64,000 bases of DNA from an uncultured Candidatus Saccharibacteria bacterium (lineage in GTDB: Bacteria > Patescibacteriota > CPR2 > UBA1875 > CAIMLA01): assembly GCA_964594415.1 (NCBI GenBank), contig CAZQLQ010000005.1, forward strand, positions 96-64,095, given 5' to 3'. Position numbers and translations under genes: made by a program. Below are positions 1-47,559 of this stretch, in pieces. Below the pieces are notes generated by a model. That model made no database searches, was not told where the DNA came from, and worked only from the letters and a program-made list of their open reading frames with translations. The first letter of the stretch is position 1. Each line of letters begins with the position of its first letter.

Positions 1-92
1 AGTTCAAGAAAAACTGAACTCCTTTTTAAAAAGATTATTCTTTTTTCGATATATTATAAGGTTTTCCTAGAAAGAATAACTTTTTAAAATAG

Positions 93-200
93 TCGGTCCT
101 CGGGACGAACAGTTTTTCGAGGGGTTTATTGTTCGAGGCGAAGTCGAGGATGACAATATTATTAAAATCACAAAAAATACTTGACAAAAAAGCTTTTTTG
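93..200. repeat. Partial copy (copy 1) of a GC-rich modular repeat family, ending in the shared promoter module
   Basis: The segments 'gttcgaggcgaagtcgaggatgacaat' and 'attattaaaatcacaaaaaatacttgaca' match parts of the elements at 1534-1800 and 3489-3710. GC is clearly higher than the flanking AT-rich DNA. Confidence 0.6.
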
Positions 201-209
201 TGATAAGAT
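181..209 (+). promoter_or_regulatory. Sigma70-like promoter: TTGACA, 17-nt spacer, TGnTAAGAT extended -10
   Basis: TTGACA at 181-186 and TAAGAT at 204-209 with TG at 201-202. The same module recurs at 1771-1799. It sits upstream of the 360..1463 CDS. Confidence 0.55.
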
Positions 210-359
210 ACACAGTCAACTAAAGAGAAGGCAATAAGCCTCAGTAGTTGACAAAGTTCATTGAAAACTGGCTAATAAAATTTTCCTTCGGGCAATCACT
301 GCTCTTTATATAGTTGCAATGCTTATATTCCAAGAAATGAAATACTTAAAGGAGTGATA

Positions 360-1463
360 ATGATGGAAGGAAGTATAGTAATAATAAATGGAAAGGCATA
401 CCGGAGAGATACCGGTGTGCAGGTAATCAACACGGAAGTTCCTAATACTCCTCCCGCCCCTGCAGCACCTGCTGCGGTAACTGCTGCGCCAACCGGAAAA
501 AAGAAAAACCCATGGAAATGGGTTGCAGGCGCGGCTTTAGCCGCGCTGCTGTTGCTGGTAGGCTGGATGATGTTCGGCCGCTACTGCGGCCCGAACTTCG
601 TAGAAAACGGGATCACCCCCCAGGGGGGGTGGACTGCTGAGTATGCAGAATATCAGCAGAGCCCCGTACTCCGGGCGGCCTTCAACCACCTTCAGGTGGT
701 TGATGAGCAGGAAATTAAAGATCTCGTGGCGCGTGAGCGCCGCGGGGAAAGTTTTGTCCAGTCCCTGCCTGCAGGGACTGTGATAAAAAACACGGAGGTA
801 ACGGAGGAGGGCTTCAGGGTATTTGATTACACCCTGAAGCAAGAAACCCAGATCCTCGTAGATATGAACGGGAATCCTGCAGTCAAGTTGGACTGTGGGA
901 ATCCCATAAAGCTGGTGCCGAAGCCAGTGGTTTCGACACCAGTAGTGAAAAAACAAGTTGTACAACAACAGACTTCCGTAGAACAGAATGTTGTTGTACA
1001 GCAAAATGTTGTTGTACAAACGGTTGTACAACAACTCCCTGATGTGATCAGAAATGTGATCATCAGGGAAGAAGATGACCATCATTCTCATCGTCGGACT
1101 TGTGACGATGACGATGAGGATGAGGATGAGGATGAAACGGAGTGCGTGGTTGATCCTGAGGATCAACACGCATCATGGAATCCTTCCACTCAGCCGGTGC
1201 AGGAGAATATTGCACCTCAGAAATCTGAGTGGATTGAGGAAAACGAAAGAGCTCAGCACGCTGAGTTTGTTCGGGAGTCCCAGCAAATACAATTTGCTGG
1301 GGAAAATGGACAGGCCACATATGGTTCTGTCCATGAAGAGGTGGGTAGAAATATAACTCCTTCGGGAGTTGTTGAGCCTACTCCTGAATCAACTGAGAAC
1401 TGGGATACTACAACTTATACAGATGTAGGTATCCCAGCAGGGTGGGTTTTAAAGCCCCAATAA
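360..1463 (+). CDS. GC-rich single-pass membrane protein of unknown function. It has a Pro/Ala-rich N-terminal region, one TM helix, a VVQQ-repeat region and a DEDEDEDE acidic tract. It is compositionally foreign.
   Basis: The ORF track gives 354..1463, which is a GTG start. An ATG at 360 with SD 'aaggag' 5 nt upstream is the more likely start. The hydrophobic helix is WKWVAGAALAALLLLVGWMMF. The coding GC (about 50-55% by eye) contrasts with about 33% elsewhere. Confidence 0.6.
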   Translation: MMEGSIVIINGKAYRRDTGVQVINTEVPNTPPAPAAPAAVTAAPTGKKKNPWKWVAGAALAALLLLVGWMMFGRYCGPNFVENGITPQGGWTAEYAEYQQSPVLRAAFNHLQVVDEQEIKDLVARERRGESFVQSLPAGTVIKNTEVTEEGFRVFDYTLKQETQILVDMNGNPAVKLDCGNPIKLVPKPVVSTPVVKKQVVQQQTSVEQNVVVQQNVVVQTVVQQLPDVIRNVIIREEDDHHSHRRTCDDDDEDEDEDETECVVDPEDQHASWNPSTQPVQENIAPQKSEWIEENERAQHAEFVRESQQIQFAGENGQATYGSVHEEVGRNITPSGVVEPTPESTENWDTTTYTDVGIPAGWVLKPQ

Positions 1464-1487
1464 TTAATTAGCCAGTTTTTTATTTAA

Positions 1488-1526
1488 GACGGTTGTGTTT
1501 CATCGCAGCCGTCTTTTTCTTTTTTG
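1488..1526 (+). terminator. Intrinsic terminator downstream of the 360..1463 CDS
   Basis: An imperfect hairpin 'agacggttgtg...cagccgtct' is followed by 'ttttctttttt'. Confidence 0.5.
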
Positions 1527-1533
1527 GTCAGTT

Positions 1534-1800
1534 ATCGTTCGAGGCAAAGCCGAGAACTACTAGGACGGGGAACTTCTCTCTTCGTTCGAAGGATATCTCT
1601 CGTGTCATCTAGTCCGCCGACTCCGATGGGTTCGTGTCGGAATCCGTCGGAGAGCGAAGTCGAAGAATCCGGATCCCCGTGTCAGGCACGAGTATGACAA
1701 TAAGGAGAGATCCTTCGAATCGCTTCGCTCCCTCAGGATGGCAATAGTATTATTAAATCACAAAAAATACTTGACAGAAATACATTATTATGATAAAGTA
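1534..1800. repeat. Copy 2 of the GC-rich modular repeat: A module (1534-1562), about 175-nt core (1571-1745), and P promoter module (1746-1800)
   Basis: The core is about 90% identical to 3489-3658. It contains long-range inverted repeats: ttcgaaggat..ctctc..gtcatcc pairs with ggatgac..gagag..atccttcgaa. The P module is shared with copy 1. Confidence 0.75.
1771..1799 (+). promoter_or_regulatory. Sigma70-like promoter (TTGACA-N17-TGaTAAAGT) for the LPXTG protein gene
   Basis: It has the same architecture as 181-209. The TSS would give a ~120-nt leader before the SD 'aaaggagg' and ATG at 1930. Confidence 0.55.
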
Positions 1801-1929
1801 ATATGTCAACAAAAAGTTGACTTTATTTTTTAGAAAAATATTGCCTATTGGTAAACTTTTTCTATCAAAAAAATAAAGAATGTAATATTATTAAAAAAGT
1901 AAGGTAAAGTCCTCGAAAGGAGGAAGAAA

Positions 1930-3405
1930 ATGGGTAAAATAACAAAAATATCAAAAAAGGTAGCTATTTATTTAGCAGCAATTATGTTCGGTATTACTAC
2001 AGCAGCATTTGCTGGCAGTACTGTGCCGATGGAAAGTAGCCTAGCGGTTGCGAACGCTACTGATGGCGATACGACTTATTCTGATTCAGTTAACGCTGAT
2101 GCAGGAGACATCGTAAAAGTTGAATTGTGGTATCACAACCAGGAGCCAGCTTCTACCGGTGATATTGCAAAAAACGTGAATATTAAAATTAATATTCCAA
2201 GTACAAGCACAAGTGATCACGCGATCACTTCGAGCGTAAAGGGTTCTAATACGACCCAAACTAACAGTTCTGCTCATGTATATACCTCAGTAAATGCAAC
2301 GCTGGAATATATACCAGGAACTGCATATAGGAGATACAACACCGGAACAAACTCAAACCCTAACTGGGTTACTGTAAAAATTTCTGATAGTGTCGTTTCT
2401 TCTAGCGGTTATACTATTTCTGAGATGAAGCCATGCTGGAATTATCAGGAAACAATTACGGTACAGGCTAGAGTTGCAAAAGCGCAAATACCTGTTCTTT
2501 CTGTTGTAAAACAGGTAAAAGTAGAAGGCGCAAGCACTTGGTCAACAGATATTAGTGCTAACCCGGGGGATACTCTTGCTTATATTATTACCGTTAAAAA
2601 TGAGGGTACCGTTAAACTTAACAATGTAATAGTTAGAGATAGTCTACCAACTAGACTTGATTATGTCGAAGGTAGTGCTAAATTGTATAATGTATTCAGC
2701 CCGAACGGCGTTTCAGTTTCTGACAGCGTTATTAAGGGTGGTATTAATATCGGTAATTTTGATCCAGGGGCAATATCATATGTTAGATTTAATGCAGTTG
2801 TTCCAACGAGTCTTGATGAGGGCGGTGCTTGGAAGTTCATAAATGTTGGTATTGGGAAATCTGATTCAACTAATGAGATCTATAACACGGCAAGGGTTAT
2901 TGTTGACTATCCAGAAACCACAAAATACACCATAAAGGCTGTAAAATTTGAAGACCTTGATGAAGATGGTACAAAAGACTCAAATGAGTCAGTTATCCAA
3001 AACTGGACGATGAAACTAACCGGCGAAGGGATCAGCGAAACATTAAAGACAGACGAAGATGGAATTGCCACTTTTACTGATTTGGACGCAGGAACTTATA
3101 CAGTTACTGAAGGGGTCTTAAGCGGTTGGAAGAATATCACTCCTCTTTCGCAGACTGTAACAATAGAAGAAGATTGCGATAATACTGAATATACGGTTTA
3201 TTTCGGTAATAAGAAACTTGTTCCAGGGGAAACCACTACTACAACTAAGACAGTAGTCACAACAGTACCTGGAAAAGGTAATTTGCCTACCTCAGGGCCA
3301 GTAGAGGCTGCTGCAGGCACGTTTGCAACAATCGGGCTTAGTGGTGCAGGTTACTATTATTGGAAGAGTAAAAAGGCCTTATTTGGGGCACTCAAGAAAT
3401 TCTAA
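1930..3405 (+). CDS. Sortase-anchored cell-surface protein: signal peptide, two DUF11-type conserved repeat domains, a CnaB/SpaA-like domain, and an LPTSG sorting signal
   Basis: N-terminus is 'KKVAIYLAAIMFGITTAAFAGS'. DUF11 signatures include 'GDTLAYIITVKNEGTVKLNNVIVRDSLPTRLDYV'. CnaB-like signature is 'DEDGIATFTDLDAGTYTVTEGVLSGWKNITP'. The C-terminus is 'LPTSG' followed by a hydrophobic stretch and 'KSKK'. Confidence 0.8.
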   Translation: MGKITKISKKVAIYLAAIMFGITTAAFAGSTVPMESSLAVANATDGDTTYSDSVNADAGDIVKVELWYHNQEPASTGDIAKNVNIKINIPSTSTSDHAITSSVKGSNTTQTNSSAHVYTSVNATLEYIPGTAYRRYNTGTNSNPNWVTVKISDSVVSSSGYTISEMKPCWNYQETITVQARVAKAQIPVLSVVKQVKVEGASTWSTDISANPGDTLAYIITVKNEGTVKLNNVIVRDSLPTRLDYVEGSAKLYNVFSPNGVSVSDSVIKGGINIGNFDPGAISYVRFNAVVPTSLDEGGAWKFINVGIGKSDSTNEIYNTARVIVDYPETTKYTIKAVKFEDLDEDGTKDSNESVIQNWTMKLTGEGISETLKTDEDGIATFTDLDAGTYTVTEGVLSGWKNITPLSQTVTIEEDCDNTEYTVYFGNKKLVPGETTTTTKTVVTTVPGKGNLPTSGPVEAAAGTFATIGLSGAGYYYWKSKKALFGALKKF

Positions 3406-3432
3406 TAATTAGTTGAGTTGATTTTAAAAAAG

Positions 3433-3455
3433 CTGGTCGAAAGACCAGTTTTTTT
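3433..3455 (+). terminator. Intrinsic terminator
   Basis: ctggtc-gaaa-gaccag hairpin followed by a T7 run. Confidence 0.7.
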
Positions 3456-3488
3456 ATTGTGTATGGCTAACAATAATAAACATTGATA

Positions 3489-3710
3489 ACTTCTCACTTC
3501 GTTCGAAGGATAACTCTCACGTCATCCCTTCCGACGACTCGATGAGTTCGTGTCGGATTCCGTCGTAGAGCGAAGTCGAGGAGTCTAGATCCCCGTGTCA
3601 AGCACGAGGATGACAATAAGGAGAGATCCTTCGAACCGCTTCGCTCCCTCAGGATGACATTTATATTGTTCGAGCGTTAGCGAGAACTACTCTATAAAAT
3701 ACTTAACGTC
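3489..3710. repeat. Copy 3 of the GC-rich modular repeat: core 3489-3658, A module 3667-3690, and a degenerate P-like module
   Basis: Near-identical core to copy 2. 'gttcgagcgttagcgagaactac' matches the A module of copy 2. The last 7 codons and stop of the HAD gene (3687..) lie inside the P-like module. Confidence 0.75.
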
Positions 3711-4373
3711 AGTTAGTATCCTGATTTTATTTATACCTGGCTCTTCTACCCTATTTTCTCTATCAATGAGCAGAGGATTGATTCCAACATTTTTTGCGCC
3801 ATGGTAATCGCTAATTAAACTATCCCCTATAAAAAGAACCTCATTAGGACTAAGTAAGGCTTTATTTAGGGCAGAGTAAAATATTTTTGGGTTTGGCTTT
3901 TCGTATCCTACCTCTTCTGAAGTCAGGACGAAGTCAAAATAGTCTTCTATGCCAAAGTGAATAAAAAATTTGTTCAAATATTCATTTTCGTTTGAGACAC
4001 AAGCCAAAGAAAGCCCCTCCTTCTTTAGCGTATGAAGAGTAGGGTTTACATCTTTGTAGAGAACAAAATTATCGGCATTCCCCCATGCTTCATGGAGCAA
4101 TCTTTCTCCCATCTCTCTACAATTTCCATTGTAACCCAATTCTTCAAGTATTTTACCGTTGAAGTTGTCCCAGGCCTGATGGCTTTTTTCGCCAAGCTCT
4201 TCAGCTGCAGCTTCTTCGTTGTTTTCTACCAGTCTATTCCACACTGCAGTCATCTTGTCTTCATCAATTTCCATTCCTGTGTGTTTTTTGATGATCCGTC
4301 TATACATTTCTATTTTGTTCGGATAGGCACAAAATAAGGTATCAATTGCGTCAAAGAATACGGCCTTAATCAT
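3687..4373 (-). CDS. HAD-superfamily hydrolase (subfamily IA-like)
   Basis: N-terminal 'FDAIDTLF' (DxD motif I) and a C-terminal 'FIGDS...D' motif. Confidence 0.65.
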   Translation of the reverse strand: MIKAVFFDAIDTLFCAYPNKIEMYRRIIKKHTGMEIDEDKMTAVWNRLVENNEEAAAEELGEKSHQAWDNFNGKILEELGYNGNCREMGERLLHEAWGNADNFVLYKDVNPTLHTLKKEGLSLACVSNENEYLNKFFIHFGIEDYFDFVLTSEEVGYEKPNPKIFYSALNKALLSPNEVLFIGDSLISDYHGAKNVGINPLLIDRENRVEEPGINKIRILTDVKYFIE

Positions 4374-4903
4374 TTTTCGGCCTTTTCTTTATATTTAATT
4401 ATCTCCTGAGGGGTCTTTGCGTTCTCGTCTATTACGGCTCTATATATATAATAGGCCATGCTGTATTTAAGTTTATTTTGCTTAAGAAAATATTCTTTGA
4501 GCAACATTATAGTTTTGCGGTTGTCCTCATTGAGCTTTGTACTGAAATCGGTGTAAAACTTGTATGCGTCTCTCAAGTAGTCGTTATTAGGCTCTGTTAA
4601 TGTGACGTCTATGGTCCACGTAGCATCTTCTACCTTGATTTCCGCTTTGATTAGATATTTATTGCTTTGAGACAATTCGTACCTATTCAAGAATGTAAGT
4701 CCTAATCCTTCGAGCTTAGTTTTGATTTTATGAGACAAATCTTCATATTCGTTTCTATTCGCATAAACTTGAATGTCTATATCGGGCTTAATGGTGGTCT
4801 TTAAGGCAACATTGCCTACAAGGTGGGTTTCTCCAAATATGGACAAGGTCTCGACTAGCTTAAGATTTTTAACAAGAGCTTCGGCTTGTTCTTGAAGATT
4901 CAT
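4370..4903 (-). CDS. Minimal nucleotidyltransferase-fold protein
   Basis: NTase signature 'GETHLVGNVALKTTIKPDIDIQV' (G-x-G..D-h-D). The start was moved to the ATG at 4903, which is 1 nt after the secA TAA stop. The listed ORF start at 4990 overlaps secA. Confidence 0.45.
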   Translation of the reverse strand: MNLQEQAEALVKNLKLVETLSIFGETHLVGNVALKTTIKPDIDIQVYANRNEYEDLSHKIKTKLEGLGLTFLNRYELSQSNKYLIKAEIKVEDATWTIDVTLTEPNNDYLRDAYKFYTDFSTKLNEDNRKTIMLLKEYFLKQNKLKYSMAYYIYRAVIDENAKTPQEIIKYKEKAEK

Positions 4904-16127: not shown

Positions 16128-17861
16128 TTAAATCTTTTTTCTAATATTTAATTTATTCAGGTAGAACAGGTACGTACTTGCAGAGAAGGCCTGAATGCCA
16201 CAACCCCACGAATCTAGCTTATTAGCCAAGCTTACTTCACCAGGCCTGCCAATGAAATTATGCCAAAGAATTTCTTCTGTTGAGGCGAAAATAAGCTCAT
16301 CGATAAAATATTTGTATTTTTTGGAATCGATATCGTTTAGCACTATAGCGGTAATATTATTTATAAAGAACCAGCTATCGCCGTTATGGTACGCATCGTT
16401 TGATAGCGACTTTTTAAATTCCGGACTTTTGATACTTATTGTTGAAAGTCCTCCCCACTTAAGCCATAAAAATGGCAGATGGCTATCTATCGTAATTTCC
16501 CATTCGCTTTTAGTTTGTAGCTCTGGTGCGAAAAAAGCCGCAAGCAAAATATTTGGTCTAGCCTCATTTTCGCCAAGCCGATCTACTTTTAAATTTCTCG
16601 AAAGCAGGTAGTGTTCTCTTATGTTCCTAATAAGATCTTCCCTTTTTGTTTTATATTTTTTGTCAAGAGTAAGCTTGTATGCTAGTTGCAAAATATTTGT
16701 ATAGTGCGCTTGAGTTTCAACCAAAAAACCTTCTCTTGCAATACTGTCCATCCATGATTCGTTCGGCGCGGAATAAATAAAGCCTAGTTCATTCTCAGTC
16801 TTTTCTAGCTCTGAAATAGCCGCTAATAACTTATTTTTTAGTTTTTCATTTTCATCTTTTGAGAGCTTTATACTTGTAATCAAAATTGCCCAGCACAATA
16901 TTCCTAGTGAGTCAGAAGTTAATTCTTTGTGACCTATCACTACAGGTATCTTTCCTGCTGGCCAATCTGCCTCTATATATTTTTTGATAATTTTTCTTAT
17001 AACAGGTTTTTCCAATACTGGTATTGATAAAAGTTCATCTCTACTCCAATGATCCGTAAACCAAGGAAGACCTGCCAAAACTCCGTTCTCCGTCGTAAGG
17101 TCTTGCATAGATTTTCTGCAAGCTACTCCGCCTGCCTTGTAAAGAGTTTCCAAGTCTGGATTGTTGTTCACCTTTGTTTTTTTATTAAAAATAAAAATTC
17201 TAGGTTTAACAATGTTCTCAAGGTTTTTCAAGGCTTCTTTTTCTGTTTCGCCGTAAGCAAATAAAATATTTTTTGCATTTACGTCGCCAAGATTGAATTC
17301 GTATAAAGTAGAGGGAGTCTGTCCTCTTTTTTCGTCTCTAGGATAATAGCATTGTTCCCATGTTTGTTTCTTTACTAATTTACCGCTAGTATGTATAGCA
17401 ACGAAAATTCCTGAGGTAATCTCGTTGTCAGTGTATTTTATTACAAGACCGTTATTGATTTCTGCTATAATTTCGTAGTTTCTTCCAAATTCGGGTGAAG
17501 AAAAAATCTTTCTGATATCAAGAAATATGCTTACGTTTTGTTTGGATGAGAGCTCGTAAGAAAAAGAAGGTTTATTTTCCGAGAGAGTAAACTTTTCTGA
17601 AAAATCACCGTATACTCTTACCACCTCTGAATTAACAGAGTCTATAATTTGTTCTTCTGGCTCGGGGTTATTAATTTTTATCTTAGCTAAAATCTTAATA
17701 TAACCCTGAGATGTTTTTACGAAAAAACCGTCATAACGACTTTGCGGCTTTTCGTAAAATATCATAAAATCTTTTCGTTTGTTTATCAGGCAGAATGCTT
17801 TGTCGTCCTTTTTTGAAACTTTTGCGATTGCCGGTGAAACGTGTTTATGAATTATTTTCAT
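16128..17861 (-). CDS. Putative alpha-glucan glycoside hydrolase, glucoamylase or debranching-enzyme-like
   Basis: Assigned by context in the glycogen cluster. Only weak motif recognition. Confidence 0.3.
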   Translation of the reverse strand: MKIIHKHVSPAIAKVSKKDDKAFCLINKRKDFMIFYEKPQSRYDGFFVKTSQGYIKILAKIKINNPEPEEQIIDSVNSEVVRVYGDFSEKFTLSENKPSFSYELSSKQNVSIFLDIRKIFSSPEFGRNYEIIAEINNGLVIKYTDNEITSGIFVAIHTSGKLVKKQTWEQCYYPRDEKRGQTPSTLYEFNLGDVNAKNILFAYGETEKEALKNLENIVKPRIFIFNKKTKVNNNPDLETLYKAGGVACRKSMQDLTTENGVLAGLPWFTDHWSRDELLSIPVLEKPVIRKIIKKYIEADWPAGKIPVVIGHKELTSDSLGILCWAILITSIKLSKDENEKLKNKLLAAISELEKTENELGFIYSAPNESWMDSIAREGFLVETQAHYTNILQLAYKLTLDKKYKTKREDLIRNIREHYLLSRNLKVDRLGENEARPNILLAAFFAPELQTKSEWEITIDSHLPFLWLKWGGLSTISIKSPEFKKSLSNDAYHNGDSWFFINNITAIVLNDIDSKKYKYFIDELIFASTEEILWHNFIGRPGEVSLANKLDSWGCGIQAFSASTYLFYLNKLNIRKKI

Positions 17862-19654
17862 TTTTTCCTCCCTGAAATATTAAGGGCTAACCTATGTGCA
17901 TCAAAATAATTTTTAGAAAGCAACTTCCAACTGTAATTTTTCGCAACTTGACTTGCATGTATTCGAGAAAGCATCCGCTCGTCCCTATTAAGTGAAGCAT
18001 ATTTATAAAGGATGCTAGTCAGGTCTTTTAGCTCTTTGTTATAGTCATAGCCGGTTCTCTTAAGTATGTAGGTTCCGGGAAGCTTCCCAGGTTTTCCAAG
18101 CTTGTTAACGGCGAATCCGTAACCGGAAAGATCAGAGGCAACTGAGGGAACACCTAAAGCATTCGCTTCTAGTGGGGTATAACCCCACGGCTCGTAAAAA
18201 GAAGGAAAAATTCCAAGGTGAGCGCCTGTCATGAAATCGTACAGATTGGTATCCAAGAGTCCGTCAGAGCCATTTAGGTAAACCGGGATAGATACTACTT
18301 TTACTTTATCGGTAGAAGAGTTGTTAAGACCTTTTTCTTTTAGTCTTTTTGTTATTGCGTCCGAGTCAGCATTTCTTAGATTATGAGTACAAAGAAGCGG
18401 CTCCCCGGATTTTGAAAATTGCTTCATTTTCGCATAGATTTTATTTCTTAGCTCTTTTTCAAGGATAAGATCGTTGGTGATCTTGAATTCCCCGGCGCAA
18501 GCTCTGATTAATTTATGATAGATACTTTCCATTTCTGACTCAAGCAATTGATTTATATTTTCAAAGATAGCTTTGCTCTGGACTAATTCTGGTCTGATTT
18601 CGTTTACTGCCGTTGGTACCGATAAAAATGCAACAACTGTTTTTTCACTATTTTCTGATTTTAACTTTTTATTTAATTCCCCTAGAGAGTCGATAAACAA
18701 ATCTATGCCTTTTGCGTGCATTTCATATCGGGCAACCAAAAAATAAATAAGAGTTTTGTCCAAATTGAATCTATAATAAGGGAAAAAATAATACATTAAA
18801 AAGTCTTTAATTATCCGCTTAAATTCAGTGTGTCTAAAAGTTATTTCCTCGGTATCAGGGAATGATTTTAAGTTAAGCCCGTTGTTTAAAATTACCTCGG
18901 GCCTTCTTCCATAAAAATGTTCAGCCTCTATGGCAGTTATATCTGAAACAGTAGTGAGGACGTCACAGTTAGCAGCTACACTTTTTTCAAGCAAATGTTT
19001 TGGGGTGATGCCTAATTCTGCTGCTTTTTGATCCGGATTTATATTCCCAATGTCTTTATAAAAATTAATTTCAGCAGATGAAAGTACTCTTCCTAAAAAT
19101 GTAGCATGGGTAGTAAAAACCGTAGCTATGTTTACTCCAACTTTTTTGAGATAAAGAATAGCAGTTCCTGCCAGCCATTCATGGGAATGCAGGATTACTT
19201 CTTCGCTTTTAAGGCAATTGTTTTTAATAATTTCAAGAATTTTAGCTACCGCCCAAGACCAAGCAACTGGTTCGTCATAATCAAAGCATGCGCTTATAGA
19301 ATCAATCTGGTACCATTCCCAAAGAGCCTTCTTTATATTGTTTACTTCAGGTAAAAAGTTTTTAAAATCAACTAAAATTACTTGCGGGGCGGATCCTATC
19401 AGCCATCTTCCATAATGAATTTCAATACCGTTTTTATCTAATTCGTCCGCTATATTTTTTAAAAAATCAGGTAATTCTTCCTGCTCAAATTGAGAAAATG
19501 AAGTTTCTCCTAAAAAAGGGCCAATTAAAAAGTAATTGTCCTCGTACTCAGTTTGCATACAATCAGATTTTGATTCTAGAACTGTATAAATTCCGCCGAT
19601 TTTGTTGCATACTTCCCAAGATGCTTCAAACAAAAAAGGTTTTTTTGTTTTCAT
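17858..19654 (-). CDS. Glycogen synthase, eukaryotic-type (GT3 family)
   Basis: N-terminal 'FEASWEVCNKIGGIYTVL' closely matches the GT3 glycogen synthase signature 'FEVAWEVANKVGGIYTV'. Confidence 0.6.
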   Translation of the reverse strand: MKTKKPFLFEASWEVCNKIGGIYTVLESKSDCMQTEYEDNYFLIGPFLGETSFSQFEQEELPDFLKNIADELDKNGIEIHYGRWLIGSAPQVILVDFKNFLPEVNNIKKALWEWYQIDSISACFDYDEPVAWSWAVAKILEIIKNNCLKSEEVILHSHEWLAGTAILYLKKVGVNIATVFTTHATFLGRVLSSAEINFYKDIGNINPDQKAAELGITPKHLLEKSVAANCDVLTTVSDITAIEAEHFYGRRPEVILNNGLNLKSFPDTEEITFRHTEFKRIIKDFLMYYFFPYYRFNLDKTLIYFLVARYEMHAKGIDLFIDSLGELNKKLKSENSEKTVVAFLSVPTAVNEIRPELVQSKAIFENINQLLESEMESIYHKLIRACAGEFKITNDLILEKELRNKIYAKMKQFSKSGEPLLCTHNLRNADSDAITKRLKEKGLNNSSTDKVKVVSIPVYLNGSDGLLDTNLYDFMTGAHLGIFPSFYEPWGYTPLEANALGVPSVASDLSGYGFAVNKLGKPGKLPGTYILKRTGYDYNKELKDLTSILYKYASLNRDERMLSRIHASQVAKNYSWKLLSKNYFDAHRLALNISGRKK

Positions 19655-28179: not shown

Positions 28180-28427
28180 CTCCCCCTGCTTGCCTGCGGT
28201 TCCTGCTTAAATGTGTTTGGATTATCTAGCGCTTTTTTGACAATACTTACTGCGATGTGGTTGCTACTTTCCCTTGCTTGAGATAATAGTCTCCCTAGTG
28301 CCTTTTTCTTCTCGTTTAGAGTCATTTTTGAGTTATTCCTAATTGTATTGATTTGATCCTCTAAAGCTTTCCTCGCCTGCTTTTTCAAAGAATCACCCCC
28401 TTTACGAATTATTAATGTGCAAGGCAA
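28176..28427 (-). CDS. Small basic hypothetical protein. The listed start is TTG. The likelier start is TTG at 28388, preceded by SD 'GGGGGTGA'.
   Basis: ORF. The SD and TTG architecture is conserved in the degenerate paralogous copy at 29640-29870. Confidence 0.45.
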   Translation of the reverse strand: MPCTLIIRKGGDSLKKQARKALEDQINTIRNNSKMTLNEKKKALGRLLSQARESSNHIAVSIVKKALDNPNTFKQEPQASRGR

Positions 28428-28500
28428 TATGTATTGAATTATTATAAATGCAATTTGTTTTAAGTAAAGGTGTTTTTTGTGAATTTTATTTGTTAAAATT
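28371..28500. repeat. Copy A of a ~130-bp duplicated segment comprising the gene 5' end, SD and promoter
   Basis: Aligns with 29821-29950: 'gcttgctttttcaaa..cacc.cc.ttacgaattattaatg.gcaa..atatgtatt.aattattataa...'. Confidence 0.7.
28441..28468 (-). promoter_or_regulatory. Putative promoter (TTTACT-N16-TATAAT) of the small-gene operon
   Basis: On the minus strand, -35 is RC of 28463-68 and -10 is RC of 28441-46. The block is duplicated at 29900-29927. Confidence 0.4.
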
Positions 28501-28536: not shown

Positions 28537-29565
28537 ATGGACAAAGTTGAAATCAACAAGTTGCTTGAGAGGTTTTATGAACAGAATCCGGACTTTCTTG
28601 ATTGTAAGGTAGAATTGATAAAAAGTGGTAACAATAGATCGACATATTTACTCGAATCAAAAAGCGGTAAAAAGCTAATACTCAAAAAGTCTCATGCTAA
28701 AAACGATCTTCCCTTTTCGAGTTTAAATGATGTCCGGGTTCAGACTTTTATCAAGTCTTTAGGTTATGATTTTGTGCCCGAAATAATATTCTGTGACAAA
28801 GGAAATGAATATTTCATAGAAGCCTACGTTGGTGAAGAAAATATTAAAGTCAATGATATGAGTGACGAGTTACTCGAGGTTTTTGCCAAACAGTTAGCCG
28901 AGGTTCATAAGCAGACCTTTAGTCAATATCAAGAGTTTTGTAAAAAAAATGATTTTGAGGTTCCTAAGGCTATATTACCGGAAGAAAGTCTGAAGATTTT
29001 TGGTTTTAACAGATTTGAAATTGTTGAAAAACTATGTGAAGACAAGGAGGTCGTTAACTGTCTTAAAGGTCAACTAAATGCAAATCTTGAATTATTAAGA
29101 AAAAATAAGACTTCTGTTGATTCTGCTCACTTATTGTGGGGCATAATCGGTAATGAAATGCGTTTTAGTGGAGATAAAATTTATTTTGTGGGTTGGGAGT
29201 TTTCGAGAGTTGGAAATGGTTCAGAACTTTCTTTCATGAAAATCCATTCCGGTATAAATGAAAACGTTCTCAAAAAAATAATTGCTTTATATTCAAAATA
29301 TAGCGGGAAAACAGAAGAAGAGTTATATGAAGAAATTAAAATTGAAGAGAAAATTACAAGAGTAAATGATGCTATCTGGGCTACGATGAAATGGTGTGAA
29401 TCGGAAACAGAAGAAGACAAGGAGAAATATAAAGAACTGACTTTTGAACGTTTAAATCTTACTAAATTCGTATTATTTTCATTACCATTTTGGTTTTCAT
29501 TTTTAAACCTCCAATCAGGTTCTGATTTACTTTCGGTAATCGCTTTATTGTTTGCAACTTTGTGA
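28537..29565 (+). CDS. APH/choline-kinase-fold phosphotransferase-like protein with substituted catalytic residues (putative pseudokinase) and a C-terminal membrane anchor
   Basis: Gly-rich region 'KSGNNRSTYLL', 'LILKK', hinge 'FIEAYVGEE'. The catalytic-loop-like 'LLWGIIGNEMRF' has no His or Asp. The Mg-site-like 'VGWEFSRVGNG' replaces the 'IDWE' Asp with Gly. The hydrophobic C-terminus is 'FVLFSLPFWFSFLNL...VIALLFATL'. Confidence 0.45.
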   Translation: MDKVEINKLLERFYEQNPDFLDCKVELIKSGNNRSTYLLESKSGKKLILKKSHAKNDLPFSSLNDVRVQTFIKSLGYDFVPEIIFCDKGNEYFIEAYVGEENIKVNDMSDELLEVFAKQLAEVHKQTFSQYQEFCKKNDFEVPKAILPEESLKIFGFNRFEIVEKLCEDKEVVNCLKGQLNANLELLRKNKTSVDSAHLLWGIIGNEMRFSGDKIYFVGWEFSRVGNGSELSFMKIHSGINENVLKKIIALYSKYSGKTEEELYEEIKIEEKITRVNDAIWATMKWCESETEEDKEKYKELTFERLNLTKFVLFSLPFWFSFLNLQSGSDLLSVIALLFATL

Positions 29566-29639: not shown

Positions 29640-29870
29640 ATCCCCCTATTCTTTATGCCTGTGCTCTAAATGCATTGGGATTATTGATAGCATTTTGAAT
29701 TAATCCAATTGCGATATGGTCACCATCCCTTTTTGCCTCGACCAACAACTTTTTTTAGTCTCTTCTTCCTTTAATTAAAGGTAATGTTCGTATCGTCCCC
29801 AATCTTCTTTATTTTACTTATTAAGGCTTCACGGGCTTGCTTTTTCAAAAAAACCACCTCCCTTACGAAT
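29640..29870 (-). pseudogene. Frameshifted, truncated paralogue of the 28176..28427 small gene
   Basis: The reverse complement encodes 'MKKQAREALISKIKKIGDDTNITFN*' and then, out of frame, '..LLVEAKRDGDHIAIGLIQNAINNPNAFRAQA*'. This parallels 'KKQARKALEDQIN...LLSQARESSNHIAVSIVKKALDNPNTFKQ'. Confidence 0.6.
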
Positions 29871-29950
29871 TATTAATGAGCAACAATATGTATTAAATTA
29901 TTATAATTTCTATTTCTTTCATGTAAGGGTATTTATTAAAATTTTTCTTG
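29821..29950. repeat. Copy B of the ~130-bp duplicated promoter/5' segment, a direct repeat of 28371-28500
   Basis: See copy A. It retains the SD 'gggaggtgg', the TTG, and the -10 TATAAT. Confidence 0.7.
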
Positions 29951-30004
29951 TTTTAATTTTCTACTGTTTTATAATTTAACAAATGTAATAACGAGAAGGA
30001 TAAA

Positions 30005-30240: not shown

Positions 30241-30271
30241 AAGTCACCTAATAAATAAGTGACTTATTTTT
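30241..30271 (+). terminator. Intrinsic terminator
   Basis: aagtcac-ctaataaataa-gtgactt hairpin followed by 'attttt'. Confidence 0.6.
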
Positions 30272-30291
30272 GGCTGGGGAGGAGGGATTCG
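30271..30291 (-). repeat. 21-nt direct repeat of the tRNA-Gln 3' end; att-site-like scar
   Basis: 'tggctggggaggagggattcg' is identical to 30455-30475. Even the preceding T-run is similar. Confidence 0.7.
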
Positions 30292-30454
30292 CAGCAGAGC
30301 TGCTTCTCACCGCTATCATGACTACTATCTTGTTATTGTTTAATAAGATTTTCGACAAATTGTGCTTCTAGCTATAAACAAAGTTTTGTTCATGTCGGTG
30401 GTCTCACCTGCCTCACAACAGAAAAAAGCCTCCCACGAATGAGAAGCTTTTTTC

Positions 30455-30529
30455 TGGCTGGGGAGGAGGGATTCGAACCCCCGAATGCCGGGACCAAAAC
30501 CCGGTGCCTTACCACTTGGCGACTCCCCA
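30455..30529 (-). tRNA. tRNA-Gln (anticodon UUG)
   Basis: RC reads TGGGGAG-TC-GCCA-AGTGGTAA-GGCA-C-CGGGT-TTTTGGT-CCCGG-CATTC-GGGGG-TTCGAAT-CCCTC-CTCCCCA-G-CCA. It has U1:A72, a 7-bp acceptor stem, anticodon loop UUUUGGU, a TPsiC loop TTCGAAT, and an encoded CCA. Confidence 0.85.
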
Positions 30530-47028: not shown

Positions 47029-47559
47029 TTATTGAAGTTCTACTGTTGCGCCAGCTTCAGTAAGCTTTGTTTTAGCGTTTTCAGCGTCTTCTTTCTTCAT
47101 ATTTTCTTTTACTGTTGCAGGCGCACCGTCTACTAGATCCTTAGCTTCTTTTAGGCCAAGTTCTGGTAGAATCTCTCTAACAGCCTTGATTACGGCAATT
47201 TTGTTTGACCCTGCGCTAGTAATAACTACATTGTAAGCGCTTTTTTCCTCTTCTTGAGGAGCAGCAGAACCAGCAGCAGCGGGCATAGCCCCCATCATAA
47301 CTGGTGCGGCGGCAGATACACCGAATCTGTCTTCAAGAACTTTTACAAGTTCAGACAGCTCGAGTACGCTCATATTCTCAATAGTTTTTACAAGGTCAGC
47401 AAATTTTCCAGTTACTTCAGTCTTTGCTGGTGTAGCTTCCGCTGCTACAACTTCTTTTACTTCTTCTACAGCCTCTTTTGCTTCCTCAACAGCGTCTTTA
47501 GCTTCTTCTACAGACTCCTCGGCAGCTTCAATAGCTTCTTTTACTTCTTCATTTGCCAT
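47029..47559 (-). CDS. rplL: 50S ribosomal protein L7/L12 with a ~50-aa acidic N-terminal extension
   Basis: Residues 51-176 ('[33 protein letters not shown]...[26 protein letters not shown]...') are canonical L7/L12. Residues 1-50 are an Ala/Glu/Val/Lys low-complexity extra segment. Confidence 0.8.

Follow-up and report, generated by a model that had tools for sequence, protein, structure and literature searches.

Two genes for envelope proteins lie among GC-rich, modular repeats near one end of a contig from an uncultured Candidatus Saccharibacteria bacterium (NCBI GenBank assembly GCA_964594415.1, contig CAZQLQ010000005.1). We analysed 64,000 nt of this contig (positions 96 to 64,095 of the forward strand), called the window in what follows, and all coordinates are those of the window. 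The modular element is very probably a cluster of repetitive extragenic palindromic (REP)-type units, a mosaic comparable to the bacterial interspersed mosaic elements (BIMEs) of E. coli or the Neisseria intergenic mosaic elements (NIMEs). Functional claims for the clusters are much less certain than this identity. A first-pass annotation of the same DNA had proposed a mobile element with outward promoters, a structured RNA family or cassette recombination sites; it did not recognize in the element a cluster whose units belong to an already described superfamily present in many phyla (CGTC/TGTC-tagged REPs, PMC3733652).

Genes and repeats at the locus

From left to right the locus comprises promoter P1, the gene for a 369-aa membrane protein, a terminator, the A module, core 2, promoter P2 and the gene for a 491-aa surface protein, followed by a bidirectional terminator, core 3, a second A module and the minus-strand gene for a HAD hydrolase (Table 1). 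Core 2 is placed between tandem genes and core 3 between convergent genes. Promoters and terminators come from a feature scan of positions 1-4400, which located both terminators of the layout first drawn. The repeats do stand beside genes for envelope or surface proteins (the 369-aa membrane protein and the 491-aa DUF11 protein), as the first-pass annotation had said, and the GC contrast that it had judged by eye was borne out by count: 0.51 in core 2 and 0.50 in core 3, against 36.8% for the window.

The 5′ half of the 369-aa gene (401-800) also has a high GC content, 56-60%. Since the start of the orthologous gene in a relative (locus L123) is likewise at ~50% GC, the bias is that of the Pro/Ala-rich N-terminal region itself and does not mark foreign DNA. 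The contig end lies within ~200 nt of copy 1, which would fit an assembly broken by repeats.

Table 1. Positions of the features at the repeat-bearing locus
Feature	Position	Strand	Remarks
Copy 1 remnant, chimeric hairpin unit GTTCGAGGCGAAGTCGAGGATGACAATA	131..158	+	Left half A-module-like; right half like tag end of a minus-strand unit
P1, promoter of 369-aa gene	Module 165..209; -35 181-186, extended -10 201-209	+	Ancestral, outside the repeat
Leader hairpin GTCAACTA...TAGTTGAC	216..252	+	Just 3′ of P1; counterpart in relatives
369-aa membrane protein	354..1463	+	Weak DUF6777 match; probable start 360; positional counterpart of geneX of relatives
Intrinsic terminator of 369-aa gene	1486..1525; 1486-1515 in the feature scan	+	
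A module copy 2, TATC GTTC-GA-GGC-AAA-GCC-GA-GAAC TAC	1533..1560	+	Hairpin with tandem G.A pairs
U0 of core 2, degenerate G.A-type hairpin unit	1571..1595	-	Left end of core 2
Long degenerate unit of core 2: tag TGTC, ...GAGCGAAGTCGAAGAAT, tail CCG	1603..1671	+	3′ half identical to Oscillospiraceae dimer partners
U2 of core 2: TGTC ATACTCGTG CCTGA CACGGGGAT CCG	1670..1699	-	Canonical CGTC-type REP; 9-bp stem, 5-nt loop
U1 of core 2, long G.A hairpin unit; plus strand GATCCTTCGAATCGCTTCGCTCCCTCAGGATGGCA	1709..1743	-	Tag mutated to TGCC
P2, duplicate of P1 before surface-protein gene	1755..1799; -35 1771-1776, -10 1794-1799	+	
Leader hairpin GTCAAC-AAAAA-GTTGAC	1805..1821	+	3′ of P2
491-aa cell-surface protein	1930..3405	+	DUF11 and SdrD_B/SpaA domains, C-terminal anchor-like tail
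Bidirectional intrinsic terminator	3425-3456	both	Between surface-protein gene and HAD gene
U0 of core 3	3488..3512	-	
Long degenerate unit of core 3: tag CGTC, ...GAGCGAAGTCGAGGAGTC, tail TAG	3520..3588	+	
U2 of core 3: TGTC ATCCTCGTG CTTGA CACGGGGAT CTA	3586..3615	-	Perfect hairpin
U1 of core 3: TGTC ATCCT GA GG GA GC GAA GC GG TTC GA AGGAT C	3625..3659	-	
A module copy 3: TATT GTTCGAGCGTTAGCGAGAAC TAC	3664..3690	+	Overlaps HAD stop codon 3687-3689
HAD hydrolase gene	3687..4373	-	Last gene of conserved SecA-side synteny block

Unit composition of the cores

The first-pass annotation had counted three copies of a ~175-nt core at about 90% identity. Two of these are full copies of 184 nt (1571-1754 and 3488-3670), identical at 89% over 131 nt and at 85% over 53 nt with one indel (~88% overall). 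What copy 1 has in common with them is confined to the final ~25 nt of the repeat (131-158) and the promoter module, and positions 93-130 do not align to the core; no further copy is present in the remaining 60 kb of the window. The A module switches sides as had been described, lying 5′ of core 2 (1537-1560) and 3′ of core 3 (3668-3690).

No core is a single element: each is pieced together from four or five small tagged hairpin units that face in opposite directions. Read along the plus strand, a degenerate U0 is followed by a long unit with a CGTC or TGTC tag and then by U2 and U1, both on the minus strand. The tags are outermost (head-head), with the plus-strand long unit set against minus-strand U2 and U1, and it is this opposition that produces the apparent ~22-bp stem with nested pairings reported for the core. 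The long outer stem appears in the minimum-energy fold of copy 3 only.

U2 is the clearest unit. Its 9-bp stem (ATCCTCGTG/CACGGGGAT) starts with A-T and T-A; it is perfectly paired in core 3 and has a single mismatch in core 2. The tag is TGTC in both cores, the 5-nt loop is CTTGA (core 3) or CCTGA (core 2), and the tail is CTA (core 3) or CCG (core 2), the published consensus being CCA. The literature was searched with the unit sequences and with typical translated peptides, and one incidental match to a Neisseria dRS3-like repeat led to sources on NIMEs and on the CGTC-tagged REP superfamily (Di Nocera, De Gregorio & Rocco 2013, BMC Genomics 14:522; PMC3733652). As described there, CGTC REPs have an unpaired CGTC tag, often replaced by TGTC or CCTC, a stem of 8-9 bp that almost invariably begins with A-T then T-A, a loop of 4-5 nt and a 3-nt tail, mostly CCA. 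They form mainly head-head dimers with the tags outside, lie between unidirectional or convergent genes and have no dedicated transposase; hosts fall in five phyla, and units are more alike across taxa than are those of GTAG REPs. On this description U2 is a canonical member of the superfamily by tag, stem and loop.

U1 and the A module are built differently. On the G/A-rich strand U1 has a tag (TGTC in core 3, TGCC in core 2) and the hairpin ATCCT-GA-(GG-GA)-GC-GAA-GC-(GA-CC)-GA-AGGAT, in which Watson-Crick blocks are split by tandem G.A/A.G pairs around a GCGAAGC mini-hairpin; its stem also starts with AT but is longer, with G.A mismatches, and its loop is GAA. The A module is of the same build (GTTC-GA-GGC-AAA-GCC-GA-GAAC), with loops AAA and GTTA and a TATY tag. 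Both hairpins have tandem sheared G.A pairs and are much more stable on the G/A-rich strand. The long unit is tagged TGTC in core 2 and CGTC in core 3, and its 3′ half GAGCGAAGTCGAAGAATCC is identical to partner units of dimers in Oscillospiraceae. Because the spacers between units are conserved in both cores, the 184-nt composite was probably copied as a block.

If the cores were instead a structured noncoding RNA gene family, each would be transcribed as a discrete folded RNA. They do fold better than shuffled sequence (z-scores of -2.4 and -2.7 on the plus strand and -1.8 on the minus strand), and weak minus-strand promoter-like sites point into copies 1 and 2. Positions 1-3800 have no Rfam match at the gathering score, however, and at E <= 10 only terminator-like chance matches; the minimum-energy folds of core 2 and core 3 differ; and compensatory pairs are absent on either strand, a comparison of two sequences having low power, while the consensus folds of the two strands disagree. 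The promoter module is missing at core 3, similarity elsewhere is limited to single 30-40-nt units or dimers, and the grammar of the units fully accounts for the apparent structure. This second reading of the first-pass annotation is very improbable.

Units in other genomes

U1 was represented by a 20-mer (CGCTTCGCTCCCTCAGGATG) taken at the core's 3′ end, which a search of species-representative genomes found in more than 117 genome stretches. Record titles among the matches listed name Gemmatimonadota, several Clostridia, Dehalococcoidia and other Chloroflexota, Acidobacteriota, Planctomycetota, Actinomycetota, Myxococcota, Fibrobacter, Ignavibacteriota, Bacteroidia, Proteobacteria and several Patescibacteria groups. 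Judged from the flanks, the shared part is a ~34-nt unit GATCCTTCG(G)TCGCTTCGCTCCCTCAGGATGACA, preceded in about half of the copies by an inverted partner upstream, of type TGTCATCCTGAGCGAAGCGAAGGATC; in a loose pattern test, a head-outward GTCAYNC-type motif lies upstream in 64 of 126 U1 copies among the matches listed. BLASTN of the whole cores against the 117 loci gave single units, or one 92-nt dimer (76-79%, in one Oscillospiraceae genome), and matched the whole core in none of them. The dispersed, mosaic character claimed for the repeat family is upheld, the recurring items being the units.

Short G.A hairpin units number 61 in 0.8 Mb of U1-bearing loci, against 0 in shuffled sequence, and are tagged TGTC (32) or CGTC (11) in most cases. 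Their outer stems covary (ATCCT/AGGAT, ATTCT/AGAAT, ATGCT/AGCAT, ACCCT/AGGGT), as do their inner pairs (GCGAAGC, GCGCAGC, ACGAAGT). A-type units with the TATY prefix occur in three other loci.

The U2 stem was found by a metagenome scan in 55 loci, whose GC content ranges from 23% to 67%. These loci hold 122 tagged perfect hairpins (shuffles, 0) with 36 distinct stems, a modal stem of 9 bp, a modal loop of 5 nt and tails that are mainly CCA (50) or CTA (37); TGTC is by far the commonest tetranucleotide before any perfect hairpin, with 113 cases, the runner-up having 32. Most U2 copies are paired head-outward. In related loci U2 units lie between tandem (13), convergent (10) or divergent (1) genes, with no preference for sense or antisense. 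A U2 with a CGTC tag and a CCA tail is present on a Sulfurovum replicon, and a Wolbachia WO region carries a version with compensatory stem changes (ATCCCAGTG/CACTGGGAT) and an unchanged loop. Plasmid and phage collections gave a single match each, and there is no sign that the units are carried mainly by plasmids or phages. A 26-mer that the two cores share exactly had 0 matches in the metagenome scan, and the 184-nt composite seems confined to this species.

No mobile gene recurs near the units among 2,969 open reading frames (ORFs) from 172 unit-bearing loci, in agreement with the published absence of a dedicated transposase. The families that do recur there (ABC ATPases, response regulators, GT2 glycosyltransferases) are discounted since they are simply abundant.

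Several high-GC genomes contain regular tandem arrays of G.A hairpin units with periods of 84-86, 100 or 162 nt (L066 3092-3390, L067 7115-7306, L068 4945-5287, L006 1140-1513). These resemble BIME-2 or NIME arrays and could pass for CRISPR arrays.

Promoter module

The two best sigma-70-like sites in positions 1-4400 are at 181-209 and 1771-1799, both of the form TTGACA-17-TGnTAAnnT. They belong to P1 and P2, which share an identical 22-mer AAATCACAAAAAATACTTGACA at 165-186 and 1755-1776 (0 matches expected by chance) and are 78% identical over 60 nt (165-224 versus 1755-1814). The promoters read from the sequence in the first-pass annotation are therefore there; their assignment to the repeat did not survive comparison with relatives. 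The comparison set consists of five relatives at 73-74% SecA identity and of L118, an 86% relative. The positional counterpart of the 369-aa gene in the relatives, called geneX here, has the promoter ACTTGACA-N17-TGATATTAT-N5-GTCAAC, the same as P1 and P2, and the module is kept upstream of geneX in L122, L123 and L125, none of which has repeats there; the -35 element, the spacer length, the extended -10 element and the GTCAAC leader are all conserved. Because relatives without repeats keep the same promoter, the module is ancestral and native to geneX and is not carried by a mobile element. P2 arose in this lineage as a duplicate of P1, placed together with the repeat tail before the surface-protein gene, and core 3 has no promoter module.

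The first-pass annotation had also considered a MITE-like transposon (MITE: miniature inverted-repeat transposable element) whose outward promoter activates the genes downstream. The same promoter module does end copies 1 and 2, and a related cluster is present in one relative and absent from another (L125 and L123, below). Conservation of the promoter and its GTCAAC leader before the orthologous gene in relatives without the repeat largely refutes this proposal, and core 3 carries no promoter module. MITEs are recognized by terminal inverted repeats, a target-site duplication and a related autonomous insertion sequence (IS). Neither end of the composite (AACTTCTC... and ...GGATGRCA) is an inverted copy of the other; no target-site duplication flanks core 2, core 3 or the L125 insertion; no IS was found; and no transposase is encoded by the scanned ORFs of the window or recurs near units in the 172 loci. 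Such an element is barely credible at this locus.

P1 and P2 each directly precede a GTCAAC...GTTGAC hairpin of variable loop length (216-252 and 1805-1821), and in L122, L123 and L125 a hairpin starting with GTCAAC likewise lies 3′ of the geneX promoter. The hairpin may be a stem-loop at the mRNA 5′ end or a regulator site.

The minus-strand promoter-like sites mentioned above (187->158 and 1777->1749; TTGTCA/CTGTCA, 17-18 nt, AATAAT) face copies 1 and 2. They are weak, with 9-10 of 12 matches, and would initiate near the U1 tag.

Comparison with related genomes

By its SecA the source belongs among Patescibacteria, with CPR2 and Howlettbacteria as the named matches; look-ups of the exact surface protein, HAD protein and SecA of the source gave no match. 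The five relatives at 73-74% SecA identity have on a single strand, in this order, SecA, a 176-aa protein, HAD, a DsbD-like protein, geneX, the DUF11 surface protein, PrfB, FtsE, FtsX and PcsB; in L122 no HAD gene is called between the 176-aa protein and DsbD. All five are free of repeats around geneX and the surface gene. The window is collinear with them from the gene for a penicillin-binding protein (PBP) to HAD, and collinearity stops exactly at core 3. Beyond it, the 491-aa surface protein is the ortholog of the 388-aa DUF11 protein of the relatives (49% identity) and the 369-aa protein has weak similarity to geneX; relative to L119 and L122-L126, this two-gene block is inverted with respect to SecA/HAD. 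The window lacks DsbD, PrfB and FtsX, and in most relatives examined the DsbD-like gene separates HAD from geneX. The clusters coincide with a synteny break and with an inverted block of two envelope-protein genes. This coincidence, a single observation, is a testable hint of repeat-associated rearrangement.

Directly after HAD, L118 has two units in the place and orientation of U1 and U2 but with different hairpins, one of which fits the dRS3 pattern ATTCCC-N8-GGGAAT exactly. The alignment with L118 also bears on the claim that core 3 supplies the last seven codons of the HAD gene: the window protein ends in DVKYFIE* and that of L118 in EIGNYI* at the same aligned place, so that the repeat contributes the stop codon (3687-3689) and at most one codon.

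L125 has four tagged hairpin units, one of them U2 with a CCA tail, clustered within 185 nt (17726-17910) that separate the stop codon of ftsX from the promoter of pcsB. L123 has an uninterrupted junction there (17725-17735, …taa|tattgaca…), an empty site of the kind that the first-pass annotation had proposed to look for; no target duplication distinguishes the filled site from the empty one. Such repeat clusters are dynamic in this clade.

The spacer between geneX and the DUF11 gene in relatives is occupied by a long GC-rich hairpin, e.g. GCTGCTGAGAGCGGCC...GGGCCGCCTCAGCGG, whose sequence varies while its pairing is kept (L122 7985-8060, L123 13676-13745, L125 13630-13700). Its equivalent in the window is the terminator, A module, core 2 and P2.

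The clusters might serve mainly as recombination hot spots or sites, NIME-like, for exchange, inversion and replacement of envelope-protein genes. This concerns function and is compatible with REP identity. It agrees with the bracketing of a fast-evolving membrane protein and a DUF11/SdrD surface protein by clusters, with the synteny break exactly at core 3 and the inversion of the two-gene block against five relatives, with the duplication of promoter plus repeat tail, and with the different array after HAD in L118 (86%); NIME arrays have been proposed to act in this way (PMC1797815). Against it, the evidence is one locus, no recombinase is nearby, the copy 1 remnant and core 3 are in direct and not inverted orientation, and the other cluster of the relatives lies between ftsX and pcsB, not by a surface antigen. 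We regard such a main function as unlikely. The cassette recombination sites of the first-pass annotation are unsupported, although the inversion and synteny break at the clusters keep alive a weaker, hot-spot form of the idea: among the 52 of 55 window ORFs of at least 90 aa that were covered (44 by Pfam scans and 8, housekeeping genes, by homology), none is a transposase, integrase or recombinase, and no core sites resembling attC are present.

Three motif resemblances were rejected. As an integron attC site, the A module, which starts with GTTCGAG and ends with CGAGAAC, on direct reading fits neither core site (RYYYAAC, GTTRRRY), and for an integron cassette the scanned ORFs of the window contain no integrase Pfam match. 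Hammerhead and kink-turn motifs were dropped on direct reading, their conserved positions not fitting.

Proposed explanation

We return to the cluster of REP-type units. Its units may spread and be homogenized as hairpins of single-stranded DNA on which a trans-acting enzyme works, by recombination and gene conversion, or by both. In this lineage the whole 184-nt composite would have been copied into two neighbouring intergenic regions, while a repeat tail, together with the promoter that belongs to the upstream gene, would have been copied to a place before the surface-protein gene. Once in place, clusters could add stable hairpins to the 3′ untranslated region (UTR) of the HAD mRNA, where with read-through transcription U1 and U2 of core 3 would lie in sense; they could act as padding that keeps a terminator apart from the promoter after it; and they could offer short homologies that favour local rearrangement.

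Several points weigh against this account. Only ~2.5 clusters are present, all within 3.7 kb of the 64-kb window, so that high copy number is unsupported here. The left half of each core is too degenerate for confident parsing. U1 and the A module have G.A mismatches and loops of 3-4 nt, and do not fit the ranges of stem and loop given for the four CGTC families (PMC3733652); the published families may or may not take in the G.A-hairpin unit types. The filled and empty sites of L125 and L123 could equally reflect a deletion. An RNA-level role of core 2 is doubtful, because it follows a terminator and precedes a promoter.

Hosts of near-identical units span 23% to 67% GC and include Patescibacteria with small, reduced genomes and no transposase in sight. 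Near-identity across a dozen or more phyla could mean either that the units are produced or kept up by some host function, itself conserved, with hairpins of single-stranded DNA as its substrate, or that they have been transferred repeatedly between phyla. In episymbiotic Patescibacteria, clusters of units might be NIME-like recombination hot spots through which envelope-protein loci diversify; we hold this whole reading to be a long shot.

The analysis removes a false lead: the locus holds neither a promoter-carrying mobile element nor a new RNA family, and its repeats are part of a superfamily already described. Elements of this kind are thus known; new are their occurrence in Patescibacteria and a range of phyla much wider than the five of the first report. 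The repeats are both present and dynamic in Patescibacteria, and the literature searched makes no mention of REP-type repeats in connection with this group. The origin and spread of CGTC-type REPs are unexplained in the literature, and the small genomes of these carriers could narrow the candidates for trans-acting factors.

Other features of the window

The last ~21 nt of a tRNA-Gln gene (minus strand, 30455-30529) are repeated 184 nt downstream (TGGCTGGGGAGGAGGGATTCG; 30254-30291 and 30438-30475), which looks like an att-site duplication left by a lost integrated element or the remnant of a second tRNA. Direct repeats of ~120 nt (28381-28500 and 29842-29959, 75-83% identical) flank a 342-aa ORF (28537-29565) without a Pfam match. 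At its 5′ end, the L7/L12 ORF (minus strand, 47029-47559), whose Pfam domains begin only at residue 54, has four to five tandem repeats of 21 nt (47447-47551); they represent either a repetitive N-terminal extension or an over-long ORF call.

Comparison with known repeat systems

U2 shares with the CGTC REPs of PMC3733652 its TGTC tag, A-T/T-A start, 9-bp stem and 5-nt loop. Its tail is likewise short, but CTA or CCG in the window where the consensus is CCA; among the 122 related units CCA (50) and CTA (37) prevail. Also shared are the head-head dimers, the tandem and convergent intergenic sites, the similarity across taxa and the lack of an adjacent transposase. Sulfurovum and Wolbachia, where U2 is respectively identical and compensated, are both listed there as CGTC hosts. 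The units here differ in occurring, by record titles, in Patescibacteria and many more phyla than the five reported in that source; in the G.A-mismatch hairpins of U1 and the A module, with 3-4-nt loops and, in U1, a much longer stem; in the TATY tag of the A module; and in a copy number that looks low, at three clusters in 64 kb.

NIMEs consist of dRS3 repeats flanking RS elements in Neisseria, and their arrays are proposed to promote exchange of adjacent genes (PMC1797815); dRS3 is family CGTC-1 in PMC3733652. Like NIMEs, the clusters are mosaic arrays of small palindromes with GC above that of their surroundings, lie beside surface-protein genes, and are syntenic between relatives yet vary in content, and one L118 unit is exactly ATTCCC-N8-GGGAAT. 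Strict dRS3 is absent from the window (0 matches at <=1 mismatch), and the locus is for this reason not a NIME in the defined sense. The clusters are also short, with 4-5 units as against long arrays, and NIMEs are described as Neisseria-specific, while no dRS3-targeting phage or transposase is evident here.

The REP/BIME repeats of E. coli and the REPINs (paired REP sequences) of Pseudomonas have in common with the units described here short imperfect palindromes with an unpaired tetranucleotide, inverted dimers able to fold into a larger hairpin, a lack of target duplication and mosaic clusters in 3′ UTRs and intergenic regions. REPINs are mobilized by REP-associated tyrosine (RAYT, or Y1) transposases, whose gene is flanked by pairs of REPs tagged GTAG or GTGG. 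The tag here is CGTC or TGTC instead, the scanned ORFs of the window have no Y1_Tnp match, and no RAYT/Y1 transposase recurs near the units in the 172 loci. REPs and REPINs of that kind are species-specific, whereas the present units are nearly identical across phyla.

The DNA mini-hairpin d(GCGAAGC) is extraordinarily stable (PMC13037366), and U1, like many related units, has exactly this GCGAAGC, or the covarying GCGCAGC or ACGAAGT, at its centre. Unlike the repeats above, d(GCGAAGC) is a structural motif and not a genetic element; its relevance here would lie in the stability that it may lend to the units when single-stranded.

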